32,000 nucleotides of DNA from Patescibacteria group bacterium (GCA_049293675.1 JBAQBR010000001.1:174915-206914); one strand, 5' to 3'; positions 1 through 32,000 are shown, numbered from the stretch's first letter. The notes: a model not told the origin generated them from the letters alone. A program made the numbers and translations.

Positions 1-446
1 ACGAGATATATGAGACTATTGGAACCCTTGTCGTAGAACCTGACGATACGGAGTTTTTTAAAAAAGAAACTGGATGACTCATTCCATATCTCCTCAACTT
101 CTGCAATCGGCTTCACGAATGTTATCTTGCCTATCTGCCTACATGCGACAGATGCATCACTCGTATCTTCGGCAAGTCCGAGTCCTCAAGCGATGCCACC
201 AGTCTTGGCGCGACTATAGAAACACGTAACACCAGACACCTTAGGATCCGGTACGCCTCCAACCTCTATCTTGTGATCTGGACCAATAAGCTTGAATGCT
301 GTATCCACAGTCCCTATCTCATATGGCTCTGTCATGCCTGTACCTTGTGAAGTCGCAGGTCTGACTTGGGTGACATTGTCCGCGATATCTCCGCTAAGAG
401 AACACGATGAGAGAAAAAGCACACTGAGAAGAAGAATTTTTTTCAT
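1..446 (-). CDS. creA: CreA-family exported lipoprotein (3-prime end runs off the window edge)
   Basis: ATG at 446-444. Signal peptide with lipobox [15 protein letters not shown]. The frame is free of TAA/TAG down to base 3 once TGA (188-186) is read as Gly. The block [52 protein letters not shown] matches the conserved CreA-family core as I recall it, with the TGA on the conserved GG. Confidence 0.75.
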
Positions 447-504
447 AAAAATAGGTTAGGAATTGCGATCATTTTTGTTTTCAACTATTAACTATCCCTA
501 TCCA

Positions 505-990
505 CTATCTCTTCTTCCAATATTCTATAATAAACTCTTCTCTCTTGTCTGTATGCATAAGTTCAAAGTCTGATTCGAATGCAACAAAGAATGCATCAGC
601 ATCATCAACTACCATATTGACCCGTGAAAGGATAACCTCATCTATCTTCCCGAGGTTGAAGAATAGCTTATATATCTCTCCTCCTCAGCAAATAAATACT
701 TTTTCTACTCAGATTGAGAGTAGATACTTATCAAGTTCATGGGCAGAGTGCATCACTGTCATTCATTCCGCAGTAAATTCTCCACGAGTAAGGACGATGT
801 TTTCCCTTCCTGGAAGTGGCCGTCCGATAGATTCGTAGGTCTTACGTCCCATGATTATAGGACTTCAGGAAGTAGTCTCTTTGAAGTGCTTAAAATCCTC
901 GCTTATATGCCAGGGGATTTTTCAGTCCTTCCCTATTGCACGATTCTCAGACATTGCTGCGATAGCGATGTAGTGTGGTTGTTGATTCAT
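505..990 (-). CDS. folA: dihydrofolate reductase
   Basis: 161 aa, ATG 990-988, TAG stop 507-505. [69 protein letters not shown] carries the DHFR signature. Four in-frame TGAs are read as Gly; the two in the quoted motif (e.g. 924-922) sit at Gly positions. Confidence 0.9.
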
Positions 991-1023
991 GAGGGGATTA
1001 TATTTTTTTGATTATCGAATGCA

Positions 1024-1057
1024 ATAAAAAAGCCCCACTTTAGTGAGGCATTTTTTT
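1024..1057 (-). terminator. rho-independent terminator after the MFS gene (looks bidirectional)
   Basis: Stem gccccac (1032-1038) / gtgaggc (1043-1049) with one G-U pair and loop ttta. It is flanked by an A-run and a T-run. Confidence 0.6.
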
Positions 1058-2288
1058 ATTTTTTGATTGCGAGTGAGACTCAGAATAACACGACGAATAT
1101 AGCAGTCGATGCAAGGAATGGCACATTGGTTCCAGGTGTGATATAGAGGAGTCATGCGAGTATCGGTCATGCAATCTGTCAGATACTCTGGATAGACGTA
1201 TTATAGCCCATGACTTTTCAGACTTCTTTTCCTGCGGTTTTCGCGAGGAGCGATCCAACTGCAGGATTGAACGAACCCATACCAAGAGGAAAGAATATCA
1301 CCCAAAAGAAAAGCCAGTATGGACTCTCATTGAACGAGAATCAAGCAAATCCAATGATAAGTACCACAAAGGCGAATGTAAGCATCTGGTATTCATCGAG
1401 ATACTTTCGTACATACTTCACGAGCCATGCCTGATAGATCACGGCCACGAGTCCCACCATCGCCATAGTATATCCTATCTGTACTGCTGAGAAGGAGAAT
1501 CTATCTGCATAGAACTGAGTCGACATGGCCTGTATCGCAGCGAATGCAAGGGTTGAACCAAAAGAGAGAAACAAAAGCGTCAAAACCATCCGAGAAAAGT
1601 GAAAGTCTACTATATGTACTTCTTCAGTATGGATATGCTTTTTTGGTTCTTGGAGGAATATATAGATAAGTATCACATTTAAGAGTATAACAAAGAATGT
1701 AATCATGATGATATCTCTCGAAGAGATAAAATTCGAGAGTACACCAGAGAGAGCAGGCCCGATGAGAAAAGCAATACCGAAAGCAGCGCCCATGAATCCC
1801 ATATTCTTCATCCGTTCTGTCGGACTCGATATATCTGCTATGTACGCCTGTATCACCGAAAATCCTGCACCCCCGAGTCATCCAACGAGACGAGCGAGGA
1901 GGAATATGAGAAAGAGTGGTGTCCATCATGCAAAAGCTGAGAGGAAGTGACTCCCTCCTATAATACCAACTTCAGAGTGGCTTATATTCCCACTCGTATT
2001 GATAGTGAGAGTCCAGATACTGATGAGCATGATAACATAACTCACGAGGTTGATGATGCTTGTAAAAGCGAGCATGCGCTTGCGGCCATACCTATCCGAG
2101 AGTCGTCAGAATATGAGTCCTCAGATGAACATACCTACTGCATAGACTGCTTGTGTATATCCAGTCCAAGATGGATCCACGGAAAACCCAGCAATAATAC
2201 TAGGAAGAAGCGGGATAAAAAGTGACATTCCTAAAATATCGAGAAATGCTGTTGCGAGAATGAGTGGGAGTTGAGATTTTTGCGTCAT
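1056..2288 (-). CDS. MFS transporter (DHA1/TetA-like)
   Basis: 410 aa, ATG 2288-2286, TAA stop 1058-1056. I checked triplet by triplet that only TGA interrupts the frame. MFS motif A GRLSDRYGRKRM is present, plus YIADISSPTERMKNMGFMGAAFGIAFLIGP and about 12 hydrophobic segments. Confidence 0.9.
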
Positions 2289-2387
2289 AGTGAGTCAGAG
2301 TATATCAATGCAGGACAAATAGGCAAGCAATAATCATAAACTCATCATTGGTTATTATCCAATAATACCCCGTAAGGTATATACTTT

Positions 2388-2432
2388 TTGTCACTATTTT
2401 GTCACTATTTTGTCACTATTTTGGTGTAATAT
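2388..2432 (+). promoter_or_regulatory. Promoter A: three perfect 11-bp direct repeats TTGTCACTATT (plus a degenerate fourth) abutting a -10 TAATAT
   Basis: TTGTCAC cores start at 2388, 2399 and 2410; a degenerate TTGGTGT starts at 2421. The -10 hexamer TAATAT is at 2427-2432, 17 nt after the start of the last perfect core. This geometry is identical to promoters B-D. It lies 31 nt upstream of the ATG at 2463. Confidence 0.7.
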
Positions 2433-2462
2433 TGAATAGTATTAACACTAACTATTCATACC

Positions 2463-3554
2463 ATGGAAATACATGACTTGGCAACCTCTCTCTGAGAAAA
2501 TACGACAAAGAAGGTCAATGAAGACTTAGATCGTCATCTTTTCTCATTTGAAGAATGAGATAATTTCTGAGAAATACTTGCAAGTAATCCAAGTGCATCG
2601 TTTAGCTTGAAGTCAATTAATGTAGCAATACATAATATACTGTGATCAAGATTATGTGTATGAGAATTTTTTAATGATAGATACTGAACTATATACTCAA
2701 CATGAGAATTTTCCTTAGCAAGAGAACTACTACAGATTGAGAGATTACAGGTAAAAGAATTACTCAATAAGGAGTGAAGACTCTCAGAGGGTTTTGTGGA
2801 AGCATCTATTGATAGAATTCAAAAAAAAGTCCAATCACTTCATATAGAAGAGTTACAAAAAAGATATAATCGAATGTTATATTCTCCAGACTGAATAGAT
2901 ACTCTTGGGGATGGAAAGGACTGTTTTTGAGATATATGAAGATTTAGACTACCAACACCTATAGAAAAATGTATAGGAACCCCATGAAGCAAAGAAACAA
3001 TAATATGACCAGGAAGAAGTGCACAACTAGTGATATCAACAGAAAAATGAACCAACAACATTGCATGAGTATGTATGACTTACAAAACAAACAACCTAGA
3101 AGAAGCTTTTAATAATGAGCTAAGTGCACACTACGCTTGAAGGTATTGATACATAAAAAGAGCCATGGAGGAAATATACGATGACATGAATGAGAAGTGA
3201 ATTATGGTCTTTCCTGTTATCTGAATGCTCCCAAAATACGCATCTCTCCGTAGTATGATGAGGATGATGCGAGATTGGGCAAAGGAACTTATAAGTGATG
3301 ATTTTGCAATGATTCCAGGAATTGCAGAGATGGATATGACCAACAATTTTTTCGATCTCTGTTCTCGACAGTTATCAGTCACACCTCTAAAACTCCTCGA
3401 CCATAGAGGAGACCCAATATCAGCTATAAATAAAAGACTTGACTATTGTAGTAGTGTGGTTACCTTTAGGGCAATAGCTGCAATTGAAAAGGCAAGACAA
3501 TGAATCAGTTCGGTTATTCCTAGAAAATCTTTTAACTTACGAGAAAATGAATAA
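2463..3554 (+). CDS. hypothetical protein, translationally coupled to the downstream histidine kinase
   Basis: 363 codons with no TAA/TAG in an AT-rich region (checked codon by codon) and about 20 in-frame TGAs. The stop TAA at 3552-3554 overlaps the kinase ATG at 3547 (ATGAATAA). No signal peptide, TM segment or recognisable motif. Confidence 0.75.
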
Positions 3555-5658
3555 CTATATATTCTTTTACTTTATTGCAACAGCACTCTCAGTATATGGA
3601 TGAATCTGAGTATATAGAAAGTATACCAACCTATGAGGGTTATTCTTTTTACTATACACAATACTTGCATCACTATGGTTAATTTTTTATTTTTTATTTT
3701 TTTCAGATTATCCATTTACAGAAGACCGAAGACTGCTTTTTTCCAGGATAGACTATTGACTCTCGCCTATTACTCTGATATGTTTTGTATTATTTATATA
3801 TTTTTTCTGAAAAAAAGAGGCATGAGATAAAATCTGAATGCAGATAAAAGAAAACGCCATACTTATGGGAACTCTGTTAATCTCATTTGGTATAATATTT
3901 TATGTATCTGTTTTTACGGATAACATCATCTACCAGATAGCGCTCGATAAAACCTGAGTATATAGAGAAATATTCTGAGAACTAACATGGCTCAGCACAT
4001 CAGTATATATTAGCTTCATTCCTATATCCTTTTTGTTCTTTCTTAAAAAACAAAGAGACTTAAGCTATATCGACAAGATAAGAATACTAAAAATAATATG
4101 GGTGAAGCTTATATTTCTTACTTTACTCATAGTACTTCAAGTTATCCTTCCTCTATATGGAATATGGATACTTGAACATGAGATTATTATATTATTTGTC
4201 ATTTCTGTTCTTGTAATAGCAAGCATTATTCAGAGATATTACTTTTCACCAATTTGATATGAGCTTAGTAGGCTTGCATTGATAATAATAGCACTTGTTA
4301 TTATATCATTTATAATATGGGGAGTTCTTCACAACTACGCTATACCCCCCGAAATACTCACAAATAACTTCTCATCATTTGTATTTATTCTTGCATATGC
4401 AAGTCTTGTGTTATGAGTATACCACATAATTGCGGCAATCTTTGATAGATATATCCTCTCAAAGACTCAAATGCATATAGTAGCATGAAAAATGAAAACG
4501 ATAAAAAGAAATATGGTGCAATTTTTGGATATCAAGTTGTTGAATAGATACCTTAGAACAGAACTAAGTAAAATATTTCAAACCAAAGAGATTGAGCTCA
4601 TTAGAATCACTGATTCAAAACAAATTGAATTCTTGTCGGATTCATTTTGAAGAATAAAAAGAAAAGTACTGATTGATGATTTCGTTTTTATGGAGGAAAA
4701 TATGATTCAGTTTGATTTTAAGAAAATAAACTCAAAACTCATTGATCCCTTTCTCTGTATACCCATCTATTACAACTCTAAGGAAATAAAGTGACTCCTC
4801 GTATTAGGAAAAAAGAAGTTCTGAAACTTCTACACTGTCTCTGAAATAGCCTTCGTAGAGGATCTAGCCCACATACTCTCTATACATATGCAGTATATAG
4901 AAGTATATAACCAACTCGAAGACATCTCTCGCAATCTCGACCGAAAAGTTGATGAGAAAACTATTGAATATAATACCCTCATCTCACGACAAAAAGAATT
5001 CATAGCGACTCTCTCTCATGAGATCAAAGCTCCTCTCACCAGTGCCCTGCTCCAGATAGATAATCTCTCTGTAGATATAGAAGAAAAAAGATTATCAGAA
5101 ACAGGTGTTCAAGAAGAAGTGGTATCTATCTGAGAAAATCTTGTTCATACAAAAACTCTACTCTCCCAGTTATTCACAACGGAGTATCTCGAGAAAAGTC
5201 AGGCAGTACTCTATCCCGAAAGGATAAATATCGTGGAATTTATTACCTCACAGTACAATATCCAGAAAAAAGTAAATCTTCATTGTATTTATACTGAAGT
5301 AATTCCAGAAAATAATATCTACGTAGGTCTTGATAAGACACAGTTTACACAAGTACTCACCAATCTCTTCTGAAATGCTGCAAAGTTTGCTGATTCCAAA
5401 AACCCTAAAATCCACTTAGAGATAGAGCAGGATGAGTCAGGTATACTAATTGGTATCGAAGACAACTGACCTGGACTCAACGGTATCGAACTAGATGAGA
5501 TATTCGAGAAGTATACAATAGGCAAGAATTCTATAGGTCTCGGAATAGGACTCTATCTCTGTAAGAGGATTATTGAGCTTCACGGTGGAACAATTGCTGC
5601 AAAAAAATGAAAAAAGCTGTCCTGAATAAGAATAGAGATACACATTCCAATCGAGTAA
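3547..5658 (+). CDS. sensor histidine kinase, about 9 TM segments, cytoplasmic GAF-like linker, HisKA and HATPase_c
   Basis: 703 aa. H-box EFIATLSHEIKAPLTS, N-box QVLTNLF-G-NAAKFA, G1 box IEDN-G-PGL (TGA 5467-5469 on the invariant Gly), G2 box GLGIGLYLCKRIIELHGGTI. The N-terminal 300 aa are highly hydrophobic. In frame with track ORFs 4033..4257 and 4888..5133. Confidence 0.9.
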
Positions 5659-5820: not shown

Positions 5821-5850
5821 GTAGTCAATAACATGTAAACACAACTTAAT

Positions 5851-6153
5851 ATGTCTCCTCTTGCGCTCGCCCCATCTTCTGAGTCATCCTCACTTTCACA
5901 TACATCTCTACGCAACTCACTCCCTGTATGAGCTGTACGCGTAATTAGCGCCACAGCGGAAGCGATTAATCAGAGTATGTATGAAACACCTAGGGCAGTT
6001 CGTACTAATGATGTTGAAGCTTTTAAGATAAAGCCTTGAACTCGATATGTGGACTGACTGGAACTTGTGGCCCAGAGGATTATCGCTGATATGCAACTTG
6101 GAAAATCTGTGCCATTGCTTCAGGAACTTGCGCGTAGTCATCTTCCAAACTAA
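5851..6153 (+). CDS. hypothetical small protein (100 aa)
   Basis: ATG 5851, double stop TAATAA at 6151. Three in-frame TGAs and no TAA/TAG. It is bracketed by promoter B and a strong terminator. The opposite-strand track ORF (5917..6141) has a non-protein-like composition. Confidence 0.65.
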
Positions 6154-6182
6154 TAAAAAAACAGCTTTTTTTTAAGAAATCA

Positions 6183-6213
6183 ATGGTTTCCTTTACTGGA
6201 AGCCATTTTTTAT
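6183..6213 (+). terminator. rho-independent terminator (copy 1 of a duplicated terminator-promoter cassette)
   Basis: Stem atggtttcc (6183-6191) / ggaagccat (6198-6206) with one G-U pair, loop tttact, then a T6 run. Confidence 0.75.
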
Positions 6214-6221
6214 TATGTACT

Positions 6222-6255
6222 CTGTAACAGATTTGTCACTATTTTTATATAGTAT
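6222..6255 (+). promoter_or_regulatory. Promoter C: cTGTAAC / TTGTCAC repeats plus -10 TAGTAT
   Basis: Cores start at 6222 and 6233. The -10 TAGTAT is at 6250-6255, 17 nt after the last core start. It lies 36 nt upstream of the ATG at 6291. Confidence 0.7.
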
Positions 6256-6290
6256 ATATCTTATAGATAGATCATTAATGATTTAATTTT

Positions 6291-7799
6291 ATGCGGTCAA
6301 CAGCAGAATATATCCAATATGTGGCACCAAGTCCACAAAAAACAAGTGATCTGAGAGAAAGGTCTGCTCTAGAGGAAATAAAGATATATAGATGACGCGC
6401 TACCACAACACTAGATGTATCTAATATATCTACCAATTCATGAGTAGGCACTGGCCAACGAGCTGCACTATTCGAAGATAATGTTATTGATAATACAGAG
6501 GAGGTAAAATGAGCTTGAGCTATCCTAGCTCGGAGAACCTTCGATGAACTCATGTGAAGATTATGAGTTGCATGACGACATATACGAAAATGAAGAGCAG
6601 CAAATGTGGAAATATTTCCAGAACACCTAGAGAGTGAATACATCGTCCCTACAATCATGCAGGAGACAACAAAGGAGGAAAAATATGCAAAAAACCTAAC
6701 TCTCGAGGTAGTATCAGAGAAGTCTACAATCACAAGTATAGTTGACCCAACGAGTGAGAGAAATATAGAGTCAATACACAAGTTATGAGTAGGATTTGGT
6801 ATAGATCCTTTTTATGTGAATAAGGATTGAGAAATTGTTCCAAATAATATGTTCAAGTTCATGTGTGGAACACTCAAAATAATGCCAAGATTTATCAAGA
6901 TTGAACATGCAATATACGATACAATAATACGGAGTAATGATGCCATATACTGAAAGTTTCGAAAATACTTAGATTATATCAGTAAGCAATGAGCAGAGAT
7001 AATTATATATAACTGAATAAAGCAAAATATATTAATAAAGCAGGATACTCCTCAAAGGACAGAGGATATATTAGGGTTAATTGATAGTGCTTACGTTACC
7101 GAAAAGCCATTCATCAAAACAAATGGAGAAATTGCTGCAAATGAGTTATCAATACGATTCAATTGAGAAATAGACAAGGCTACATGAATCCAGCAAATAA
7201 AAGATGCTTGATATACTTTTATGCTCCTTGAAAAAATACTCAAAAAAGCAATTGAACGAGCAGAAGCATGAAAAAAGACATCATTAAGTGTATATATCAA
7301 AGATGTTAATAATCTACAATTAATGCCCGTAGTCTGGAAGGCTATCAAGCATCTTCCAACTACAACAAGAAACCGAATTTGTATATGGATTAATGGGGAT
7401 AACTACGGCGAATTAGACAGCGTATTTTTCAACCAATTAGAGCTCTTGAAGAAGAGCTGACTACACGTCGGTATCGATAATCTAGGACATATAGAGAGTA
7501 CGGCATTGTTAGGTAAAAAAATACTGGATTGATGTATGGATCCTAATAAGGAAATATCTATCAATATGGTAAGGATACACAGAAGAGTTACAGAAGGTAT
7601 TATTGCGTGAAAACTCAGTGATAATGACTTAAGAAATCTGGATAATAGTCTGGCTATGTTAAAGAATCAGTCATGAGAAAAAATTACAGTTGTATTTGGC
7701 TGAATCAAGGGAACGATGGATATTGATAAGATTGCATTGCGCATGGTGGCGTTGGGAAAATCGAAAAAAGAAGTATTGTATCAATGAGAAAAAATATAG
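6291..7799 (+). CDS. hypothetical protein (502 aa) with a C-terminal degenerate EAL-like domain
   Basis: 503 codons checked individually: about 23 TGAs, no TAA/TAG, TAG stop at 7797-7799. The C-terminal 230 aa can be laid on the EAL-domain pattern: KPFIKTNGEIAANELSIRF (QPI..G.i.g.EaL.R), SLSVYIKDV (vNls), RICIWING (lEitE), GLHVGIDNLG (iAlDDFG), KITVVFGGIKG (vvAEGVE), LYQG (QGy). Most catalytic acidic residues are replaced. Confidence 0.75.
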
Positions 7800-8051
7800 T
7801 AAGTATGCGTACGGTATTAGTTCAATTGAAATAATTTATAATACTAAGTATGCTCCTTCATGATAAATAAATAATTTCACTAGAATACTATCATTGCGAA
7901 AAGGTGAAAAGAACTACCATAAATCAAGATAAAAATAATTGTTTCTATTATGACGGATATAGATTATAAATACATATAGTATACAATTAATCAATTTTTT
8001 TAATTCCATAGAAAATCTATTAAAAACTTTTATATATTCTTACGCATACGT

Positions 8052-8082
8052 ATGCTTTCCTTTACTGGAAGCCATTTTTTAT
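8052..8082 (+). terminator. rho-independent terminator (copy 2 of the duplicated cassette)
   Basis: Stem atgctttcc (8052-8060) / ggaagccat (8067-8075) with one mismatch and one G-U pair. Same tttact loop and T6 run as copy 1. Confidence 0.65.
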
Positions 8083-8090
8083 TATGTATT

Positions 8091-8124
8091 TTGTAACAGA
8101 TTTGTCACTAATCAATTGTATAAT
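8091..8124 (+). promoter_or_regulatory. Promoter D: TTGTAAC / TTGTCAC repeats plus -10 TATAAT
   Basis: Cores start at 8091 and 8102. The -10 TATAAT is at 8119-8124, 17 nt after the last core start. It lies 27 nt upstream of the ATG at 8151. Confidence 0.7.
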
Positions 8125-8150
8125 GTATTTATTAGTTCTTAATATATTAT

Positions 8151-8408
8151 ATGCAATCATTACAAATACATATAAAACCAACGGAAGACACATTATACAA
8201 AAGATTGATCCAACATAGCTTAGGATGAGTTGATTATTACCCGGAGATACGAGCACGTTGATTGGTGGAGGAAACTCTAAAAAAAATAGCCTCAATAGAA
8301 AGACTTCAAGAACAACATGAAGCAGAGGATAATAAAGAACTTTTAGACCTTCTAAAAAGATTGATGCCAGAAAAACTTAAACACTTCTGAAAAGAAAAGG
8401 ATCTATAA
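8151..8408 (+). CDS. hypothetical small protein (85 aa, predicted helical, charged)
   Basis: ATG 8151, TAA stop at 8406-8408, 3 in-frame TGAs. It lies directly downstream of promoter D and upstream of the response-regulator gene. A competing antisense track ORF (8062..8295) would run through the promoter. Confidence 0.55.
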
Positions 8409-8429
8409 TAAAGAGTGTCCTATGTAAAT

Positions 8430-8458
8430 TTGCAAATTTTCTCAATTTATTGTATTAT
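8430..8458 (+). promoter_or_regulatory. sigma70-like promoter for the response-regulator gene
   Basis: TTGCAA (8430-8435), 17-nt spacer, TATTAT (8453-8458), with TG immediately upstream of the hexamer. Confidence 0.45.
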
Positions 8459-8491
8459 CTATATATCTTCCCTTACCGTTGCTAGGAAATC

Positions 8492-9241
8492 ATGAACATC
8501 CTCCTTATCGAAGACAACAATCAGTTTGCAGAACACCTCTCCAACACACTCTTAAAAAATACATATGTTAATAGAGTAGAGAGGATTTCATCGTATGCAG
8601 AATTCGAAGAACTTGTAGGACATATGAGATCTTTTGACATCGTACTCGTGGATCTCGTACTTGAGTGAGATACTATACGCAACCCATCTGGATTCAAGAT
8701 TATCCAGAGTCTCCGTAAGAACTGAAGTTCAGTACCAATTATTGTTATCAGTTCAAGTGATACTATCAACGATATCGAATATTCTTTTTCTCTTGGGGCC
8801 ACAGACTACATGGGCAAGGATATCCGATATAGAGAACTAGAGATAAGGTTATTCCACTGGTACCGTGAATATTGCATGGGCAGCATAAGCAAAAAACGAT
8901 GAGCCCTCTCATACCATGGACTTGAGTATTCACAATCAAAAAACGAATACCTATATGCATGAAAGGTTATCAACTTCACAAAAACAGCAAAATATCTACT
9001 TTCATTGTTCTTCAATGAGCGAGAAAAACTCCTCACGGATGAGTATATCATAGAGAAAGTATGGTGATACAACGAAGAACTCGATATGAAAAATACTCTG
9101 CGCGTCAATATCCGTAGACTCCGTGGAACACTCGAAGAGAGTGGCATCTCTCACTGGCTTCAGAATGACTGGTGAGAAGGATATATTTTCAAGTATAGGA
9201 CTCTAGAAGAGATGGAGGGAGGAGAGAAAAAAGAGGATTAA
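8492..9241 (+). CDS. OmpR/PhoB-family response regulator (receiver plus winged-helix DNA-binding domain)
   Basis: 249 aa. Receiver domain MNILLIEDN...DIVLVDLVLE. Winged helix EKVW-G-YNEE..NTLRVNIRRLRGTLEE...DW-G-EGYIFK, with TGAs at conserved Gly positions (e.g. 9173-9175). TAA stop at 9239-9241. Confidence 0.9.
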
Positions 9242-12516: not shown

Positions 12517-12531
12517 AGTTGATAGTTAGGT

Positions 12532-14358: not shown

Positions 14359-14384
14359 ACAAGTAAACAATATCTAAAAAATAA

Positions 14385-15668: not shown

Positions 15669-15674
15669 ATACAA

Positions 15675-20010: not shown

Positions 20011-20124
20011 GGGCGTATTATATGAAAAGTATGACTCTATGCAAAAGGAAAAAGAAATATAATTATACGCTAAAAATTAGAAATATATTGACAATCGTCT
20101 ATTTATACTATACTAATCCTTAAT

Positions 20125-21084: not shown

Positions 21085-21106
21085 ACCATTGCGTGGGATT
21101 TTTTCT
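21072..21106 (+). terminator. rho-independent terminator
   Basis: aaaatccc (21072-21079) pairs with gggatttt (21095-21102), followed by a T-run. The loop is rather large, so the call is moderate. Confidence 0.5.
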
Positions 21107-21204
21107 TGATTTTTCCACCTTTTTCCATAGAGTTCAGGAGTCAAAAATACGGAGCAAGATTTATCGACTTCGTCTATCGCCTTCGCTCGAAATGACAGGA
21201 ACAT

Positions 21205-21292
21205 GGAGAGGTCGCATAGTGGCCTAGTGCACACCCTTGGAAAGGGTGCGTATCGCAAGATACCGGGAGTTCGAATCTCCCTCTCTCCGCCA
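21205..21292 (+). tRNA. tRNA-Ser (anticodon GGA), 88 nt, CCA encoded
   Basis: Folded by hand. Acceptor GGAGAGG/TCTCTCC. D-arm with GG. Anticodon stem CACCC/GGGTG with loop TT-GGA-AA. Long variable arm GTATC-GCAA-GATAC (class II). T-arm GGGAG-TTCGAAT-CTCCC. Discriminator G plus CCA. Confidence 0.92.
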
Positions 21293-21325
21293 TCATATTA
21301 TTCAAATTTTTTACTATTCTCTTCT

Positions 21326-21850
21326 ATGATGAATACTCTTGCTAAGCTCGCACAGAAGCCAACAGACCGAAACATTCGCATCACTCGTGTAGTTTTTGCA
21401 CTCATACTCATCGCAATTATCTACTTCGGATACGATGTTACTGCTGTGAACTTCGGACTCCCTACCGAGCTCAAGTACGGACTCTACCTCTTCCCTGCCA
21501 TCGGACTTGTTCGTGGGCTCCTCGATCCAGGAATTGTGAGAAAGTGAATCTGGAGATGGGTTATCACGGGACTCGGAGGACTCATGCTCCTCATCTCACT
21601 CATCCTCATCGATGACGTACAAGAGACTACAACTACAGTTATCCCAACCACTGTATCAGGCGAGACGGGCGTCAGTATCTCTGATCTCACTGCAACTCCA
21701 GAGTCATCATCCCCATTCTCTCTCTCGACTGATAACTGGTTTGGATTCTTCGGGCCGATACTCATAATTATCTGATTCCTCCTCAATGGAAAGAACATCA
21801 CGATGAAGAATGAACGATACGGAGAAGTTATCAAAAAGATACGAGTATAA
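21326..21850 (+). CDS. small membrane protein (possibly DUF2892/YgaP-like N-terminus)
   Basis: 174 aa, 2 in-frame TGAs, TAA stop at 21848-21850. MMNTLAKLAQKPTDRNIRITRVVFALILIAIIYFG plus at least three further hydrophobic segments and a Thr/Ser-rich linker. The functional assignment is weak. Confidence 0.75.
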
Positions 21851-21862
21851 AAACAGAAGTTT

Positions 21863-21893
21863 AAAAAAGAGCAGAAAAACCTGCTCTTTTTTT
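21863..21893 (+). terminator. rho-independent terminator
   Basis: Stem agagcag (21868-21874) / ctgctct (21881-21887), then a T7 run, with an A6 run upstream. Confidence 0.75.
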
Positions 21894-21920
21894 GACAAAA
21901 AGAAAAATACCTGTTACTAT
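21892..21920 (+). promoter_or_regulatory. near-consensus sigma70-type promoter with no protein gene downstream
   Basis: TTGACA (21892-21897), exactly 17-nt spacer, TACTAT (21915-21920). Confidence 0.5.
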
Positions 21921-21926
21921 TCTTAT

Positions 21927-22186
21927 GTCTACTTCGTGAAGAACGGTATACTTCACATGCCAACCAAAATACATACAAATAATACCTGTATAATCTATAC
22001 AAATCGTGCACACCAAAAAGGTGGCACAAAACACAAATACACGAGCTGGTCATCCTCAATCAACAGACCAAAACGCAGTAGACCATAGATTTTCTCAAAG
22101 TGAAGATAAGAGAAAATATAAAATCCCCACTCTCGGCTCAAAAATTTCATTTTAATAGCCACGTTATGAGAGACGGGGATTTTTAT
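21927..22186 (+). ncRNA. candidate unclassified small RNA (about 260 nt) between promoter 21892 and hairpin 22120-22183
   Basis: The spacer between the two convergent genes is 335 nt, unusually long for this compact genome. It has a promoter at its start and a hairpin plus T-run at its end. Local hairpins: gtgaag/cttcac (21936-21956) and gtgcacacc/ggtggcac (22006-22027). The 5-prime TCTTAT..CTTC can pair with GAAGATAAGA (22102-22111). Only 22-aa and 43-aa ORFs are present. No known RNA family recognised by eye. Confidence 0.3.
22120..22183. terminator. long imperfect hairpin acting as ychF terminator (and possibly for the plus-strand unit)
   Basis: Outer stem aaaatcccc (22120-22128) / ggggatttt (22175-22183). 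Inner stem ctctc (22130-22134) / gagag (22168-22172). T-runs on both strands. It starts 3 nt after the ychF stop. Confidence 0.6.
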
Positions 22187-23274
22187 TACGCACCAAACTT
22201 AAACAACATCACATCTCAGTCCTGGACGATATATTCTTTCCCCTCCATTCGGACTTTTCCCTTCTCACGAGCACCACTCCATCCACCGAATTCAACAAGG
22301 TCTTTCCAATTGACGGTTTCTGCTTTTATGAACTTCTTCTGGAAGTCAGTATGTATCACACCTGCAGCCTCAGGTGCTGTATCACCCTGATGGATTGTCC
22401 ATGCGCGCACCTCTATCTCCCCTGCTGTGAAGTAATACTGGAGACCGAGAAGTGTATAACACGTCTTGATGATCGCATCCATAGGATTGAAGTCGATACC
22501 CATATCTGCAAGGAACATCTTTTTGTCCTCTTCAGAGAACTCGAGCATATCCATCTCGATCTTGGCACTCACAGGAAGGACTGGAATCTTGGCATCAGTA
22601 ATCCCTGTGATAGTACGGAGTTCTGATTCTGGAGTATTGACCTTGTCCTCTGTGAGATTGACCGCATAGATGAACGGCTTGTTCGTGAGGAGATGGAGAT
22701 CATATATAGACTTTTTCTCTTCATCAGTCATCTCCATAAGAGATGTAACCTTCCCATCTTCGAGGTGAGCCTTGAGGCGAGCATAGACATCTTCACGAGA
22801 CTTGGCTTCCTTGTCACCTGCACGGACCTTTTTACTATTGTCGCCAATTCGCTTGTCGAGGGTCTCGAGGTCAGCGAATATGAGTTCGAGGTTGATAATC
22901 TCGATATCTCGCTTCGGGTCGACAGAACCTGATACATGATGCACATTGGAGTCATCAAAAGCACGCACCACCTGAAGAATCGCATCAACAGATCGGATAT
23001 GTGAGAGGAACTTGTTTCCGAGGCCTTCGCCCTTGGACGCTCATTCGACGAGTCCAGCAATATCGACGAATTCAACATTGGCAGGAATAGTTTTGGCTCC
23101 GTTCACTACAACGCGTATCTGCTCGAGACGGTCATCGTTGACATTCACGATACCAGTATTTGGTTCGATAGTACAGAATGGGAAGTTCGCAGCCTCGGCT
23201 GCATATGACTTGGTGAGAGCATTAAAGAGAGTGGATTTACCAACATTCGGGAGACCGACGATACCAACTTGCAT
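22186..23274 (-). CDS. ychF: redox-regulated ATPase YchF (Obg-like GTPase family)
   Basis: 362 aa. [21 protein letters not shown]...[26 protein letters not shown]...[14 protein letters not shown]. The track ORF end at 22216 is a TGA; the real TAA stop is at 22188-22186. Confidence 0.95.
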
Positions 23275-23605: not shown

Positions 23606-24187
23606 CTAATTACAGAGGTCTTCCCCTGAACGTCGTATCTCAGTACGTCCCGTTCTCCGATCGAATACGATTTTTTTGGCCATATCTATGTATCGAACTT
23701 GGATTTCGAGAACGTTGGCATCAGCAGGAAAAGGTGCACTTGCACCAGTAAATGTAGTTCCATTTTTATCTATGATGATATCGACGGTATCCGTCATCCC
23801 ACTATTAGTTCATCGGCATCACTTGATAGACTGGATCTCGTACTTGGGATCATTGTCAAAAAATGGAGAAACAAGTGTTCCACTGAGAACCGTAGGGACA
23901 TAATGCCAAGAGACTCCATGATCGATACTTCCTGACCTAGATATAGTAATATTGGCTCAAGTTGTGCCTGTACTATACTGATCCATGCGTCACATCATCA
24001 CAGATACAGAGCTTGTATGGAGAATTCCTTGAATCTTATTAGCGATACGCTCAGCTTTTGTCATATTTTCTTGTGAACGAAAATTTATCTGAGAGACAAG
24101 AGCAAACATTGAACCAATTATGGCTATAACCACCATAATTTCTATCATTGTAAAGCCTGATTTGGAAAAAGAAAATTGCGTTTTCAT
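23606..24187 (-). CDS. type IV pilin-like / pseudopilin protein with prepilin N-terminal methylation motif
   Basis: 193 aa, joined across 6 TGAs (frame scanned), TAG stop at 23608-23606. The class III signal KSGFTMIEIMVVIAIIGSMFAL (G/FTMIE) is present. Confidence 0.8.
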
Positions 24188-24240
24188 AGCATTTTTTTAT
24201 GATATACGGGAAGTGTATATTTTCTTATCCTTTTTGCAAC

Positions 24241-24927
24241 ATGAAATCATCTATCCTTTTCGTCGCTTTCGGTTGTATTCTCAGTTTTGGACTCACCTCA
24301 ACTCTCTCAGCAGCAAGTGGTGACGCCGTTGAGTCTACTACCACAGAATCGGTTGTCCAAGTTGAGAATCCTCTTCTCATCGACTCTATAGATACTACAG
24401 ATGACATGCATATCAATGTTGTATTCAACCAGGATGTTATCCGCGAATCTGTACGTGTACGCATATCTAAGCAGAGTGACGAGTCCAATGTTCGTATTGA
24501 CTCATTCACAGGCGGGGAAGATGGTCGCTCTATCCAGGTTATACTCTCTGACTCTCTTGAAGCTAATACATCATACAAGATGACTATCATCAGTGCTATC
24601 TCTGAAGATGGAGTTATCATCAAGGATGGTGCTGACGGAATCAAGGAATTCAGTACTCCAGAAGATCTCAAAAAATACGTCGAAGAAACTATCGAGCTCA
24701 GCGCACCTGCCAATCCGAATGCAGTAATCGTAGAAGCATCTGGATCTCAGACAGGAGAACAGACTGGTGGTACAGTTCTCCCAAAACCAACTGAGCCAAC
24801 CGGAGAAAATCCACTCCCATCTACGACAGCAGAGGAACTCCCACTCACAGGAGTCAACTCAACAATATTTCTTGCTGTTGCTGGCGTACTTGCTCTTATA
24901 TTTGTATTACGTAGACGCCAAGCATAA
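24241..24927 (+). CDS. LPXTG-anchored surface protein with Ig-like (SbsA/Big_5-type) repeat region
   Basis: Signal peptide MKSSILFVAFGCILSFGLTSTLSAASG (the track's upstream ATG at 24199 adds 14 atypical residues). C-terminal sorting signal EELPLTG plus hydrophobic NSTIFLAVAGVLALIFVL plus RRRQA. No TGA inside. Confidence 0.85.
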   Translation: MKSSILFVAFGCILSFGLTSTLSAASGDAVESTTTESVVQVENPLLIDSIDTTDDMHINVVFNQDVIRESVRVRISKQSDESNVRIDSFTGGEDGRSIQVILSDSLEANTSYKMTIISAISEDGVIIKDGADGIKEFSTPEDLKKYVEETIELSAPANPNAVIVEASGSQTGEQTGGTVLPKPTEPTGENPLPSTTAEELPLTGVNSTIFLAVAGVLALIFVLRRRQA

Positions 24928-24982: not shown

Positions 24983-26221
24983 ATGGAAAAGAAACATATT
25001 GACGCTACTCTCGTTTTTCTCATACTTGCCCTCGTAATATTCGGGCTTATTATGATGAGCTCTGTAAGTGTGTACTCGTCCAATACTGTAACAACGAAGA
25101 TGGTTGCTCTTGGTAAACTCACAGAAGGTAACAATTATTTTTATCTCTTGAGACACATGATGTATGTGGTTATCGGGGTGGTTGCTCTTGGTATCACATC
25201 GAAGATTCCATACACTTTCCTCGAAAAATACGCGAAACATCTATTTGGAGTTACACTGATTCTTCTTATATTGGTACTTTTTGTTGGTGAAGAGTACAAT
25301 GGTGCTAAGTGATGGCTCAATATCCCGTGAGTACCATCGATTCAGCCAGTAGAATTCATGAAGATAGGAATCATCATCTTCCTTGCATACTTTGCGAAGA
25401 AAAAAAGACATGTTATCAGTAGCCTCTTTGATGGATTTATTCCGTATTTTCTGATTGTTGGAAGTGTATTCTTTCTCCTTATTCTCCAACCAGACTTCTG
25501 ATCTATACTCATTATTGCACCAGTGGTTATTGCTCTGTATTTTGTGAGTGGAGGGAGCTCTCGCTATATTGGCTTCTCTATACTGATATGTCTTATCGGC
25601 GCTGTCAGCATCTATAGCATAGGAAAGATAGACCTAAAAAATAGTGAATGAAGGAATACAAATCCCCTCAATTATATCTCCCAGAGAATTGATAATTTTA
25701 TACGAGACAACAAGGAGCTCATCGAAAAACCAAACCCAGATGGAAAGGACTATCAGACAAAACAAGGACTCATCGCTATAGGAAGTGGTGGATTCTTCTG
25801 ACTTGGATTCTGAAAATCAATACAAAAATTCTGATATCTTCCTGAAGTTCAGTGAGACTTCATATTTTCAGTTATCGTAGAAGAACTCTGATTCCTTGGT
25901 GCATGTGTACTCATAGGAATCTATCTCATGATTGCATATCGCTGATATATAATTGCCCGTTCAGTCAAGGATATATTTGCTCAATACGTTGCGTTCGGAA
26001 TCACAACACTTATCTTTGTTCAGGCAGGGATCAACATCGGAGTCAACCTCAATATCATACCACTTACAGGAGTTACTCTCCCCTTCGTGAGCTATGGATG
26101 ATCTTCCCTCCTCTCTATGATGATATGTGTCGGAATCCTCCTCTCTATCTCTCGACATCGTGAATACCGTCCACAGAAGATTACGGATATATTCTCAGCC
26201 GAGAGACGTATTGTAATCTAA
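24983..26221 (+). CDS. ftsW: SEDS-family peptidoglycan polymerase/lipid II flippase (FtsW/RodA/SpoVE)
   Basis: 412 aa; frame scanned, 11 TGAs. SIQPVEFMKIGIIIFLAYF; GSGGFF-G-LGF-G-KS..YLPEVQ-G-DFIFSVIVEEL-G-FLG; IIPLTGVTLPFVSYG-G-SSLL (TGA 26099-26101 on the invariant Gly). FtsW and RodA cannot be told apart from this sequence alone. Confidence 0.9.
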
Positions 26222-26684: not shown

Positions 26685-27977
26685 ATGAAAATTTCTCTTA
26701 AAAATATCTCTGTTTTTGATATCTGTTTTCGAATACTACTTATCTTGCTTCCTTTTACTACCATACTCTCGATATGGATGAAGCAAAAATTTGGACTTGG
26801 AGGTTTTGGTTTTTATAAAGAAGGACTCCTAGCTCTCATGTTCCTCTCTGTTGCTTGGTATCACGTACGTGGTAAGCTCAAGATACAGTGGTCATGGCTT
26901 GATGGACTCATCCTCGCATATATTGTGACGATGATTCTTGTGAGCTTTTTTACCACTGGAATTCCTGGGATTATCTATGGCGGTAGATATGATTTTAGTT
27001 TTCTCCTCGCCTTCTGGATACTCTATCATGGCTCAACACTCCTCTCTGGACATGTGAGTTATTATCTCAAGATATTTCTTATCTCTGGAGGTATTATGTT
27101 GTTCCTCTCAGGACTCCTAAAGTGGCCACTCTCAGAAGATATACTCCTATGGTTCGGATACTGTGGTAATCCCTCTAACTGGCAGGCCTGTGACGGTGTT
27201 CCACCAATATTTCATGGGATAGATGGGGCCAATGTGCGTAGATTCCAGTGACTCCTCGATGGACCTAATACTATGTGAGCCTTCCTCATACTATTCTCTG
27301 GTATATTTGCATATTATATGCGTATGAAGCGAGAGTGGTACTTCGTGACAGGGATCATAATGATCGGACTCCTCATGATGATTGTCTATACATACTCTCG
27401 CAGTGCACTCCTCGGAGCACTCTGAGGCATAGGTGTTGCCGTAATATGGAGCATCAGGCCACTCTATAAAAAATACAAAAAACAATTCTTGACGATGATT
27501 GTAATAGGGATAAGTATCATGGGAATTCTTGGGATAAAATACGCAGACAGTGCTGGAGCAATACTCTGAAGGGCTGGGTCAACCAAGTGACACTTCGAGC
27601 GTATGCTTACCAGTATCGAGCGCTTCCAGGAGCATCCTATGGGTCAGTGACTCGCAAGTTCTGGACCTGCATATAGATATATCATAGATGTGGATGCGAG
27701 CAATATGGAAGAAAAAGATAAGTTCTATATCCCCGAAAGTTGGTATATCCAACAATTTGTCGAGTGAGGCGTCATAGGAGGTGTGCTTTTTCTCGCCATC
27801 ATGCTTCTGTTGTTCATTGCTCTCGTTGCCAAAAGTCCTATTCTCGGAGGGATGTTCGTGGGAGTTGGTATTATGAATCTTTTTCTCCATACGTTTGAGT
27901 CAAGTATCCTCGTGCTCCCTCTCTTCATGCTCATCGGACTCCTCCTGGGGGAAAAGAGGAGAAGCCATAAACAATAA
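26685..27977 (+). CDS. O-antigen ligase/polymerase (Wzy_C)-family integral membrane protein
   Basis: 430 aa; frame scanned, 7 TGAs. Ten or more TM segments. YTYSRSALLGAL-G-GIGVAVIW and -G-HFERMLTSIERFQEHPMGQ-G-LASSGPAY resemble the Wzy_C loop region. TAA stop at 27975-27977. Confidence 0.8.
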
Positions 27978-27982
27978 TCCCT

Positions 27983-29089
27983 GTGATAAAAATCCTCTTC
28001 GCATCCCGTCTCGTCCATGAAAAGTGAGTCGATATACTCATAGATTGTATAGAGTCTTTTGATCACGATGCTACACTAAAAGAGCAAATTGAGTGGCATA
28101 TATGTTCTGATGGTGATGCTCGAGAGACTATAATAGAACTCACAAAAAAATATAAAAACGTCACATACTATAGACGACTCTCTCAGGATAAGCTCCAAGA
28201 ACTCTATAAGCAAGTAGACATCCTCTTCATGCCGTCACGATTCCTTGAGACCTTCGGCCTCACGGCACTCGAGGCACTCACGAGTGGTACTCCTGTCTGC
28301 GCGCCAGCGAAGTGAGGTCTTCGTCCTTTTGTCACACTCGAGCTCACACTGGATGAATCACGTCCAGTAGAGTCCTTCCGTGAGATACTAGAAGAAAAAC
28401 TCCGATGAGAAACATGGGAACTTCCTGATATTCGGAACTTCAGTGAAAAAAATTGGAACAATAAACTCTCAGAGTTATTTGAATCAAGTAGCAATATCTT
28501 GATAGTACACGACTATGAGGAAAAAATAGGCTGAGCAGAGTACTATATCGAACTCGTGATAGAGTCACTTCGGAATCTATGAAAAAATGTGTCTTTTTAC
28601 GGATACAGAGGACAGACGACAGTATGGAAGAGGCGCATTATGTTCGTACTTTCTATATTTGCATTCTGGCGAGGTATCGCACTCTACAAGACACTCGAAG
28701 AGAGACAAATAGATACTATATGGATGCATTCAGTACTCAGATATATCGGACCTTGGTGAGTACTTGCCATAAGACTCTATAAGAGAAAACAAAAGATATA
28801 TCTCTCACACCATGATATCGGACTTCTTGCGGCTTTTCCTCAGGATATCACAGAAGAATCATCTATTCCGGTGGGTTCATCTCTTCAGGAATTTATCCCT
28901 GATACGAGCATGACAAAAAAGATCATCAGCGTAGGAAAATATCTCTACGTAAGAATTATCATTGCTCTATTACCAACAGAAACAACTCATATCATATTTG
29001 CACCGTTTCTTGAGGCGAATATCAGAGGACAATTCAGAAAAGATACAAAAATAGATACTTTCCCCCATAAGGCTATCGTCCGAACATAG
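27983..29089 (+). CDS. GT-B (GT4/group 1) glycosyltransferase with inverted domain order (C-terminal-type half first, N-terminal-type half second)
   Basis: 368 aa from GTG 27983 (5 nt after the preceding stop); frame scanned, 7 TGAs. Residues 1-115 are ILFASRLVHEKGVDILIDCI...DILFMPSRFLETFGLTALEALTSGTPVCAPAK-G-GL, the donor-binding C-terminal half. Residues about 170-368 are NILIVHDYEEKIG-G-AEYYIELVIESLRNL-G-KNVSFYGY...IDTIWMHSV...IYLSHHDIGL, the N-terminal-type half. TAG stop at 29087-29089. Confidence 0.8.
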
Positions 29090-30089
29090 TCTTGAGAAGG
29101 AGGATAAATCTCCCTTTTGGCGAGAGGGATATACAGAGTTTCGGTGAGAGCTTGACGAGATAGCCTCCGAACTTTTCCTTGAAGTCAGAGACTCACTTGA
29201 GGTGATCATCTGGATTATCTGGATCAGCAACTCAGAGGAAATCATAATATGGAATATTTTTCTTCTTGGCTTCCTGTATTGCGTGCCACTGGAGGAGGTA
29301 TGAACCCATGCGCTTACGATCTTCCTTGTCTGATGACGATGCACCATAGTAGTATATCGCACGAGCAGGCGTGAAGACGAATATACCTGCAACAATAGCA
29401 CGGCCTTCTGCCATACCGAAGTAGAGTCCACATCCATACTGAGCATATATCTCACGAAGGAATACCTCATAATATGCACGACTATTCCCTGCGAATCCAT
29501 CACGCGCAAGGGTATCTCCGAGAAGTCACATCCAGATATCGATATTTTCTTCTGTTAGGGGAACTGACTCAATAGTCACTCACCGCTTGACGGCGAGATT
29601 GATATGATACCTCCCCTTCTCTCGCATCTGTGCGAATATCTCATCTGGGGTTCCAGAGAGGTCAACTACGCGGTTGTATGGCGTGAGGAATTCCTTGTAC
29701 ACACGATTTCCACTTCCCTTGAGGAGGAGCATGAGAGGATTCTTTTTCTTATCAACTCAGAGTCCAGAGGCAATCATCCCAGTATCCTCGATTGGCTCAA
29801 CTTGGAGGAGAACGATTCCTTTTTTTCCTAGCTCCACCTTCAAGGCATCTATACAGAGGGTAAAATCAGACTGAATCTGAACAGTATTGGGTCCAAGAAC
29901 AAATGCTCCAAGCATCCCAAGCTTGAGCGTACGCACCTCCACCAAGAGAAAGGTTCCCTCTGTATTACCAAAATAAAATACCTCCTCTGCCTGATGGGAG
30001 TCTTCGAGTATGCGCTTCCAAGTATGTGACTGCCAGAATGAGAGCCCAGAATCATCGATAGACTCAGGCGGGAGAAAACTATATAACAT
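29073..30089 (-). CDS. FemAB-family peptidoglycan interpeptide-bridge aminoacyltransferase
   Basis: 338 aa; frame scanned and joined across 5 TGAs. ...GRYHINLAVKR-G-V...AIVAGIFVFTPARAIYYYGASSSDKEDRKRMGSYLLQWHAIQEAKKKNIPYYDFL-G-VADP..LK-G-VSDFKEKFGG. TAG stop at 29075-29073. It overlaps the convergent GT gene by 17 nt. Confidence 0.85.
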
Positions 30090-30133
30090 ATGAGAGAAAG
30101 TGTAGTAAAATCAAGGAAAAAGCAAGGAAAAAG

Positions 30134-30162
30134 TTGCGTAAAAAGAGAAAACATGTTATAAT
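30134..30162 (+). promoter_or_regulatory. sigma70-like promoter with extended -10 upstream of the STAS gene
   Basis: TTGCGT (30134-30139), 17-nt spacer that includes TGt, then TATAAT (30157-30162). Confidence 0.5.
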
Positions 30163-30183
30163 TCTCACCAAAGTTATAGGATT

Positions 30184-30588
30184 ATGGGTTCAATCTCATT
30201 TCCTAGCTCCTATTTTCTATCTCTTTCCACTATGCTCACGCAACTCGAAGTCAAAAAATCTAGTACCAATACAGGCGTAAAAATCTTCTCTTTCCATGGA
30301 GAACTCGATGAGACCAATGTTGACACAACTTTCCCGAATATCATCGCTGATATCGGTGATTTTACTGGTGCTCGTATCCTCTTCAACCTCGTTGAACTCA
30401 AGTATCTCAACAGTAAATCTATCGGATATATTGCTGACATAGCTCAACGCACTGAAGACGGAGGTGGCAAGTTCGCACTCTCCAATATCGGTACAGAAGT
30501 CCGCGATACGCTCGACCTCGTGGGTATTACTTCTATTGTTCCAGTGTTTGATGCTGAAGATGTTGCTCTCACAGAGTTGTCAAAATAA
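30184..30588 (+). CDS. STAS-domain protein (anti-sigma-factor antagonist, SpoIIAA-like)
   Basis: 134 aa from ATG 30184. An internal ATG at 30232 would give a canonical 118-aa STAS protein starting MLTQLEVKK. FSFHGELDETNV...ARILFNLVELKYLNSKSIGYI...GGKFALSNIGTEVRDTLDLVGI. TAA stop. Confidence 0.8.
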   Translation: MGSISFPSSYFLSLSTMLTQLEVKKSSTNTGVKIFSFHGELDETNVDTTFPNIIADIGDFTGARILFNLVELKYLNSKSIGYIADIAQRTEDGGGKFALSNIGTEVRDTLDLVGITSIVPVFDAEDVALTELSK

Positions 30589-30647
30589 TAAAATGCATTG
30601 ACGAGAGATATAAAATAATTATTATACAAATATACAATATTAGAAAT

Positions 30648-31910
30648 ATGACAGTTTTTTTTCAAACCATCGATAGATCAGAAAGTGTACGAAACACTCC
30701 TGAGAAACCATCTCCATCTATACAAGAACAACTTGCTACTCTACGTGCAGAACTAGAAAAAAAGCCAGTAAAAAATATATACGAGCGTAAGGAAATACAG
30801 AGAAAGATTAAGCGACTCGAGCGACTCAACTCTGTGATGGAGTGAAAAAATATAGACGAGAAAAATCAGAAAGATGTTGCAGCTATACTCAAGGGAAAAA
30901 GCGCGGATACTATCAAAAACTCTGATATCCTCACTCTCCGTAAGAAAGGTGTAGATATAGCTAACCTCACTCTCGTAGACGAGAAAAATCCCGAAAAAGA
31001 AATCAAATCCTCTGAGATGGCCGTAGGAGAGAGTTTTGTTGTGAACTTTGGAAGCAATACCTCACTCCGAGATAGGACTGGAGCTGGAGATATCCTCCCG
31101 CCAAATATCAAAAATATTACAATTAATGGTGTTCCCTGTGAGAGAAGAAATACTCCCCGTCCAGGATATTATAATGAAAGATGAAAGTATCAGCCAGTAT
31201 ACGATGGATACAAAATTACAATCGTAGCATTGGGCACAACAACAGAAGAAGATACCAAGGCAAATGAGAGACAGTGGAAGAGAGAAAGACTAGAGGATAT
31301 GATACTTAATGAAGATAAGCCTCTAACAAACATACAAGACGATCTGGATTTAAAAGATGGCATTGAGGAATATAAAAATCGTTCAGAAAGAATAACTAAA
31401 TCTTTTACCCGTTGAGTGGATACTGTGCGGGCTAACTCATTTCGTCTTTCTGACTCTTGATGGGAAGGGATTGCCAATTCTGTCGGACTCTCATCTGATA
31501 AGATAAGCAATGTAAAAGCAATTATGTCTGCAATTGGTGAACACGAAAGCAACTCAAATTACCAAGCAATGGGACAGGTCTTACCAAGTGGTTCTCATGT
31601 ATGAACTGCCGCAATTTGAAGATACCAAGTAATGCCAAAGAATTGGGTTAGTTGGTCTGAGATATATTTTTGAGAACAACTCGAACCAACAGCTGAAAAT
31701 CAAGATAAAGTTGCCTTTGCAAGAATGTCTGAATATTATCTAAAGTACTCTCAGCGTTATGGAGATGATGAAGAATCAATATTTAGAGAAATTGCATGAG
31801 ACTGGTATGGAAGAGGTTCTGCGCAAATTGCATGACACCCAAACACATGAGGATACCAGTGATCTGTACTTGCTATATATAGGAGAATTAGTGATGCTAA
31901 TCAAGCCTAA
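30648..31910 (+). CDS. protein with N-terminal coiled/charged region and C-terminal lysozyme-like (lambda-R/GH104-type lytic transglycosylase) domain
   Basis: 420 aa; frame scanned, 11 TGAs, TAA stop at 31908-31910. C-terminal AIGEHESNSNYQAMG...SHV-G-TAAI-G-RYQVMPKNWVSWSEIYF-G-EQLEPTAENQDKVAFARMSEYY resembles the SEG...STGAGRYQLL..WW......F.P..QD.VA pattern of lambda endolysin R as I recall it. No signal peptide or TM segment seen. Confidence 0.75.
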
Positions 31911-31934
31911 AACAATCTCCCCTGCCCCTCATCT

Positions 31935-31958
31935 CCCGCCAATTCGGCGGGTTTTTTT
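31935..31958. terminator. rho-independent terminator
   Basis: GC-rich stem cccgcc (31935-31940) / ggcggg (31946-31951), followed by a T7 run. Confidence 0.8.
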
Positions 31959-32000
31959 ATGGTGTAGAGTTTTTTGAGTGTATCCTTGAGATCGTATCAG

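Follow-up and report, generated by a model that had tools for sequence, protein, structure and literature searches.

UGA is very probably translated as glycine in a 32-kb stretch of Patescibacteria DNA whose closest relatives are titled Candidatus Gracilibacteria

The genetic code of a 32,000-nucleotide stretch of DNA from a Patescibacteria group bacterium (GCA_049293675.1 JBAQBR010000001.1:174915-206914) was analysed in this work. This whole stretch is called the window, and its GC content is 39.9%. The window very probably uses code 25 of Gracilibacteria, with UGA as a glycine codon, UGG as the sole codon for tryptophan, and UAA and UAG as the only stop codons. A tRNA-Gly with the anticodon UCA and the loss of the release factor 2 gene (prfB) would accompany this code, as judged from relatives and the literature. 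That UGA encodes glycine in these lineages was known as early as 2013, and this reading of the window adds nothing biologically new. Depending on the code that is chosen, the window is read as about 27 intact genes or as a mass of pseudogenes. The correct code also points to an origin from Gracilibacteria of the BD1-5 type.

The longest stop-to-stop open reading frame (ORF) of the window is 274 amino acids under table 11, and there are no ORFs of at least 300 amino acids. When TGA is freed as a sense codon, 18 ORFs of at least 300 amino acids are obtained and the longest has 1095 amino acids. Freeing TAG instead gives two such ORFs and freeing TAA instead gives one. The initial annotation of this stretch had claimed that the conserved genes are fragmented under the standard code with TGA at every junction that it traced, and it had proposed a comparison of ORF lengths across tables. 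The comparison agrees with that claim, where length is recovered only when TGA is freed and the recovery under code 4 equals that under code 25. Full-length Pfam matches were obtained from 16 ORFs translated through TGA. These are folA, htpX, map, ftsK, ychF, ftsW, and the genes for the MFS transporter, the histidine kinase, the OmpR-type regulator, the AcrB-type RND pump, the HlyD-type fusion protein, the pilin-like protein, the LPXTG protein, the Wzy_C protein, the group 1 glycosyltransferase, and the FemAB protein. The 16 genes have 123 in-frame TGA and 64 TGG, and neither in-frame TAA or TAG nor any frameshift was found across their 6928 codons. They terminate with TAA (11 genes) or TAG (five genes). 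All 26 ORFs that have their terminus in the window stop at TAA or TAG, and none stops at TGA. The initial annotation had also described ftsK as being in six pieces, but this gene has seven in-frame TGA and is therefore broken into eight pieces under table 11.

The break-up of every conserved gene under table 11 is also what the standard code would give if these genes were pseudogenes broken by nonsense codons, or if the TGAs were sequencing or assembly errors. This explanation has next to no probability. The 123 in-frame TGA stand against zero TAA or TAG and zero frameshifts, the Pfam domains are complete, and one stop codon is used exclusively and concentrates at glycine positions. Positions 8059-22516 of the window were compared with an independent Logan assembly (SRR28011844_760), whose contig lies wholly within the window (L001), and no mismatches were found. 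The TGAs are therefore not sequence errors. In-frame TGA is also present in the orthologues from dozens of relatives.

The amino acid inserted at UGA was assessed using protein structures. Each TGA was masked as X and the proteins were aligned to PDB structures from standard-code organisms, where the best match was taken for each protein. Glycine is opposite 17 of the 30 TGA positions in six proteins and tryptophan is opposite none of them (binomial P ~1e-11 for 17/30, with an assumed glycine background of 8%). The TGA positions opposite glycine are 2/2 in YchF, 3/5 in dihydrofolate reductase (DHFR), 3/6 in methionine aminopeptidase (MAP), 5/11 in FtsW, 3/4 in FtsK, and 1/2 in HtpX. The remaining two positions in DHFR are opposite asparagine. 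Conserved tryptophans are encoded by TGG, as in the motifs VRAWT of YchF, IPW of DHFR, and ALKW of FtsK.

Eight codons had been cited in the initial annotation as TGAs at invariant glycines. All eight are indeed TGA, with the positions, strands, and peptide contexts that had been given for them, and all except one are opposite glycine in solved structures. On the plus strand, these are the G1-box codon of the histidine kinase (IEDN-x-PGL, 5467-5469) in HK853 structures, the C-terminal codon of the OmpR-type regulator (DW-x-EGYIF, 9173-9175) in the RpaA structure, the HtpX codon (HILN-x-DMVT, 15234-15236) in 3cqb, and the FtsW codon (PFVSYG-x-SS, 26099-26101) in FtsW and RodA structures. On the minus strand, these are the FtsK codon upstream of Walker A (GKDIQ-x-D, 18823-18825) in Pseudomonas aeruginosa and Escherichia coli FtsK structures, and the two YchF codons (GLVE context, 23041-23043, and IVQD-x-DVM, 22216-22218) in three YchF structures. 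The exception is the DHFR codon (GKD-x-KIPW, 922-924, minus strand), which is opposite asparagine in Bacillus anthracis DHFR structures and is therefore not an invariant glycine, with glycine being compatible at this site.

The codons of relatives were then read opposite the TGAs of the window. GTDB species genomes were scanned once with aligned relatives of the RND pump as the query, which gave 80 loci. Ten window proteins with X at TGA were searched against these loci by tblastn, and the subject codon was read at 152,471 aligned positions. Opposite the TGA codons of the window (n = 2675), the subject codon is GGN at 40.1%, TGA at 23.7%, and TGG at none, and the common replacements are S, A, N, T, and K. 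Opposite GGN codons (n = 8593), the subject codon is GGN at 55%, TGA at 17%, and TGG at none, and the common replacements are S, A, N, T, and D. TGA and GGN codons thus exhibit the same replacement spectrum (S, A, N, T). Opposite TGG codons (n = 833), the subject codon is TGG at 58%, GGN at 2.3%, and TGA at 0.7%, and the common replacements are F, Y, I, and L. Four relatives that are nearly free of TGA (L018, L021, L022, and L038) have glycine at 75 of the 120 window-TGA positions (62%) and tryptophan at none. In accessory ORFs that have no family, 45 of 75 TGA positions are opposite TGA or GGN, and none is opposite TGG.

For each of the 61 sense codons, the best alignment is to the standard amino acid. 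CGA and CGG occur at 7.5 and 1.4 per 1000 codons, respectively, and both are opposite arginine (45-52%) and then lysine. The CGG at residue 57 of DHFR encodes the conserved arginine of IGRPLPGR. The extended code of Absconditabacteria, where CGA and CGG are tryptophan, was considered and dropped since both codons align with arginine and CGA is common. The reading of UGA as glycine is the sole deviation visible in the window, and table 25 is therefore the right table.

Code 4 is used by Mycoplasmatales and by insect endosymbionts such as Hodgkinia, Zinderia, and Nasuia. It makes the stop codon UGA a sense codon as in the window, but the residue inserted there is tryptophan and not glycine. That the window uses code 4 is exceedingly unlikely, even though this code recovers the ORF lengths equally well and the public copy of the RND pump protein has tryptophan at all 21 of its TGA positions. 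Tryptophan is absent opposite TGA in the PDB alignments, and TGG is opposite 0 of the 2675 TGAs of the window, whereas true TGG columns keep TGG at 58% and are otherwise aromatic or hydrophobic. The public copy (P0001, from Logan SRR28011844) is itself a code-4 translation. The RND relatives in the same protein collection have tryptophan in 22% of the cells at window GGN columns, which identifies these tryptophans as artefacts of code-4 translation. An alignment of 29 RND sequences from this collection has no invariant glycine column. Large protein catalogues already include proteins of this organism in code-4 translation. Such catalogue copies put tryptophan at conserved glycines, and they harm the alignments, profiles, and structure predictions that are built on them.

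The initial annotation had held that UGA is a glycine codon and that TGG still encodes tryptophan. It had called for alignments of the ftsK, ychF, ftsW, and htpX products, and it had named tryptophan enrichment at TGA columns, rather than glycine enrichment, as evidence to the contrary. The findings in this work support its two assignments, and tryptophan enrichment did not occur in the alignments to structures or to relatives.

The 27 ORFs of the window have 211 TGA in total, which is about 29% of all glycine codons. The glycine content per gene is 3.9-11.9%, which is normal only if TGA is counted as glycine. The glycine content of orf363, for example, would drop to 1.9% without TGA. These numbers bear on local recoding, where UGA would be read as selenocysteine or by programmed readthrough with no genome-wide reassignment. 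The label given by ARAGORN to a tRNA with the anticodon UCA in one related locus, tRNA-SeC, agrees with selenocysteine. Local recoding is virtually impossible, where 211 TGA in 27 ORFs are far too many, the TGAs are at glycine columns and not at cysteine or selenocysteine columns, and no gene of the window ends at TGA. The tRNA in question is at 15943-16016 (plus strand) of L068, a metagenome-assembled genome (MAG) of Absconditabacterales, about 9.7 kb downstream of the RND pump gene there. This tRNA is 74 nucleotides long, has no long variable arm, and is scored by Rfam as an ordinary tRNA (56.7 bits) and not as tRNA-Sec, which shows the ARAGORN label to be wrong. It exhibits G1:C72, C2:G71, G3:C70, and U73, which are the criteria for tRNA-Gly(UCA) used by Shulgina and Eddy (PMC8629427). 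It is the sole tRNA with this anticodon found by ARAGORN in the 80 related loci, and L068 is a distant relative.

UGA is translated in every conserved gene of the window, is located at glycine positions, exchanges with GGN but never with UGG among relatives, and is never needed as a terminator. Under code 25, UGA would be an ordinary glycine codon, UGG would be the sole tryptophan codon, and termination would be performed by UAA and UAG alone. Relatives and published genomes suggest that a dedicated tRNA-Gly with the anticodon UCA would decode UGA and that release factor 2 would have been lost, so that nothing would compete at this codon. It has been reported that prfB was undetected in all available BD1-5 genomes (Sieber et al., PMC6851277), and the loss of release factor 2 has been described as a hallmark common to UGA reassignments (gTranslate preprint, 10.64898/2026.05.24.727570). 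The translation of UGA as glycine in a BD1-5 bacterium has been confirmed by proteomics according to the citation of Hanke et al. (PMC4032931) in PMC6851277.

The decoding of UGA could also be ambiguous, where UGA is mostly glycine but terminates some translation, or where wobble by U34 lets UCA read UGG and gives occasional tryptophan at UGA by the reverse. Shulgina and Eddy mention that UGA and UGG could be decoded ambiguously in such lineages (PMC8629427), and the housekeeping genes of the window have few TGA. Ambiguous decoding is very unlikely. TAA or TAG is present at all 26 termini in the window. In YchF, FtsK, and the histidine kinase, the Pfam matches end only a few residues short of the C-terminus, and in MAP the match ends no more than 9 residues short of it. 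The few TGA in housekeeping genes are accounted for by their higher GC content at third codon positions (GC3).

The window fits chromosomal DNA of Gracilibacteria (BD1-5-type, candidate phyla radiation/Patescibacteria), as judged from the record titles of relatives. In the protein database and in GTDB genomes, the records that best match the RND pump bear the titles Candidatus Gracilibacteria, Patescibacteria group, 'Peribacteria', or Absconditabacterales, which fits the origin from Gracilibacteria or Absconditabacteria that the initial annotation had proposed. The closest relative is the MAG HEM.3 (JALQWG010000002.1, L002), which is titled Candidatus Gracilibacteria and whose RND pump exhibits 92-93% amino acid identity. 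HEM.3 is syntenic with the window at a DNA identity of 72-86%, and it therefore represents a different species. The RND orthologues of Absconditabacterales exhibit an identity of only 41-42%. At NCBI, the name 'Candidatus Gracilibacteria bacterium' now belongs to Candidatus Altimarinota in the Patescibacteria group. In GTDB, the users of table 25 are the orders BD1-5 and Absconditabacterales of the class JAEDAM01 (gTranslate preprint, 10.64898/2026.05.24.727570).

The known systems closest to the window are Gracilibacteria (BD1-5) with code 25, such as 28_42_T64 (CP042461; PMC6851277) and SN-2 of Hanke et al. (PMC4032931). The window and these systems have in common in-frame UGA at glycine positions, UGG as tryptophan, UAA and UAG as the only stops, and CGA and CGG that still encode arginine. 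CP042461 itself is among the recovered loci (L066). The GC content of the window is higher than that of 28_42_T64 (39.9% vs 28.9%; PMC6851277), and TGA has a correspondingly lower share of the glycine codons in the RND gene (26% vs 68% in the L066 orthologue). Shulgina and Eddy predict that CGA and CGG encode tryptophan in Absconditabacteria and that CGG does so in some Gracilibacteria (PMC8629427). The window shares UGA as glycine with Absconditabacteria (SR1), but it does not match their predicted CGA and CGG tryptophan codons.

Some observations weigh against code 25 in a Gracilibacteria window. No tRNA-Gly(UCA) was found within the 32-kb window, where the only tRNA is a tRNA-Ser(GGA) (21205-21292, plus strand) that is not a UGA decoder. 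About 36% of the codons aligned with TGA in relatives are non-glycine codons, and the value for GGN codons of the window is similar (27%). The placement in a lineage is based on the titles of nearest-neighbour records.

The share of TGA among glycine codons varies from 0 to 75% per gene and is anticorrelated with GC3 (Spearman -0.70, n = 27 window ORFs). Six low-GC genes, all on the plus strand, exhibit GC3 of 0.22-0.32 and have TGA at 47-75% of their glycine codons. These genes are orf363 (2463-3554; 20 of 27 glycine codons are TGA), the sensor histidine kinase gene (3484-5658; 20 TGA; Pfam HATPase_c and HisKA), orf502 (6291-7799; 23 TGA), a gene at 8151-8408, orf252 (17088-17846; eight TGA), and orf319 (20125-21084; 20 of 31 glycine codons are TGA). 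TGA is 7-12% of glycine codons in the housekeeping genes ychF, ftsK, and htpX, and it is absent in the LPXTG, STAS, and MazE-like genes. Among 80 RND orthologues, the TGA share decreases with the GC content of the locus (rho -0.79), with about 90% at a GC content of 22-26% and zero at about 55%. The TGA share tracks the base composition of the gene because no glycine codon other than TGA is AT-rich, and it is low in housekeeping genes because their GC3 is higher. The simplest reading of this variation is that it is compositional.

The TGA-poor loci L018, L021, L022, L038, L078, and L079 contrast with the TGA-rich loci L040, L043, L048, L054, L072, and L075, and the TGA share in L022 is zero despite a GC content of 0.44. 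The TGA-free RND relatives are about 50% identical, and each has a single TGA among the aligned codons. These relatives may use the standard code, and that single TGA could be a stop codon that was read through by the tblastn search under code 25.

The TGA-richest genes are lineage-specific and match no known family. Two of these genes are in segments that HEM.3 lacks. PADLOC and relaxed Pfam searches with the five TGA-rich ORFs that have no assigned family gave nothing significant, and neither orf502 nor orf319 matches a family in Pfam or PADLOC. It is unlikely that TGA use is specific to gene classes beyond composition, where accessory genes would be newly acquired from code-25 donors of lower GC content or from the phages of such donors, or expression would be tuned by a scarce tRNA-Gly(UCA). 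If true, TGA use would distinguish a separate pool of accessory genes or a layer of translational control. The segments at 5838-8022 (with orf502) and 20060-21325 (with orf319) have no counterpart in HEM.3, which is otherwise syntenic. L003 (46% amino acid identity) and L005 (31%) have homologues of orf319 at the corresponding position, and orf502 has a single weak match in L052 (20%). A full-length match to orf363 is present in HEM.3 (67% amino acid identity). An ORF on the opposite strand (2405-3061) was dropped since orf363 is better conserved in HEM.3.

The other genes of the window are as follows. The minus strand has a CreA-family lipoprotein gene that is cut by the window edge (3-446; one TGA and 14 GGN; Pfam CreA 5e-38), the DHFR gene folA (505-990; five TGA; stop TAG; Pfam DHFR_1 1e-42), and an MFS transporter gene (1056-2348; 12 TGA; Pfam MFS_1 1e-44). 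An OmpR-type response regulator gene is on the plus strand (8492-9241; six TGA; Pfam Response_reg and Trans_reg_C). The AcrB-type RND efflux pump gene (9238-12516, minus strand; 21 TGA) matches Pfam ACR_tran at 2e-120 over profile positions 2-1018 of 1021. The gene for a HlyD-type membrane fusion protein is on the same strand (12532-14370; eight TGA; Pfam match). The M48 protease gene htpX (14727-15668, plus strand; two TGA; Pfam Peptidase_M48; PDB 3cqb) precedes map (16224-17009, minus strand; six TGA; Pfam Peptidase_M24; PDB alignments), ftsK (17821-20010, minus strand; alpha, motor, and gamma domains of FtsK in Pfam), and ychF (22186-23274, minus strand; two TGA; Pfam match). Both orf252 and orf420 (30648-31910, plus strand; 11 TGA) belong to no known family, and a STAS-domain gene is at 30184-30588 (plus strand).

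The gene ftsW of the SEDS family (24983-26221, plus strand; 11 TGA; Pfam FTSW_RODA_SPOVE 3e-91; PDB alignments) is surrounded by genes for the cell surface. These are a pilin-like gene with an N-terminal methylation motif (23606-24187, minus strand; four TGA; Pfam match), a gene for an LPXTG-anchored surface protein with Ig-like features (24199-24927, plus strand; TGA at 0 of 17 glycine codons; Pfam match), and a FemAB-family gene (29073-30125, minus strand; six TGA; Pfam match). This set points to a Gram-positive-like wall that would have sortase-anchored proteins and peptide cross-bridges.

A Wzy_C (O-antigen ligase-like) membrane protein gene (26685-27977, plus strand; seven TGA; Pfam match) is followed by a glycosyltransferase group 1 gene (27983-29089, plus strand; six TGA; Pfam match). 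The latter ORF starts directly with Glycos_transf_1, which is the C-terminal half in GT4-type enzymes, where its residues 3-118 match profile positions 17-132. About 230 residues follow, and their start, NILIVHDYEEKIGGAEYY, resembles an N-terminal GT4 half. This arrangement suggests that the domains are permuted, that two gene fragments have been fused, or that a rearrangement took place.

The small MazE/AbrB-like gene (14385-14630, minus strand), which corresponds to a Logan gene call with PF04014, is located between the efflux operon and htpX. In 57 of the 80 related loci it is conserved beside the gene for the fusion protein, with an amino acid identity of up to 89%. The gene has no obvious toxin partner, and it may therefore regulate the efflux operon rather than act as an antitoxin.

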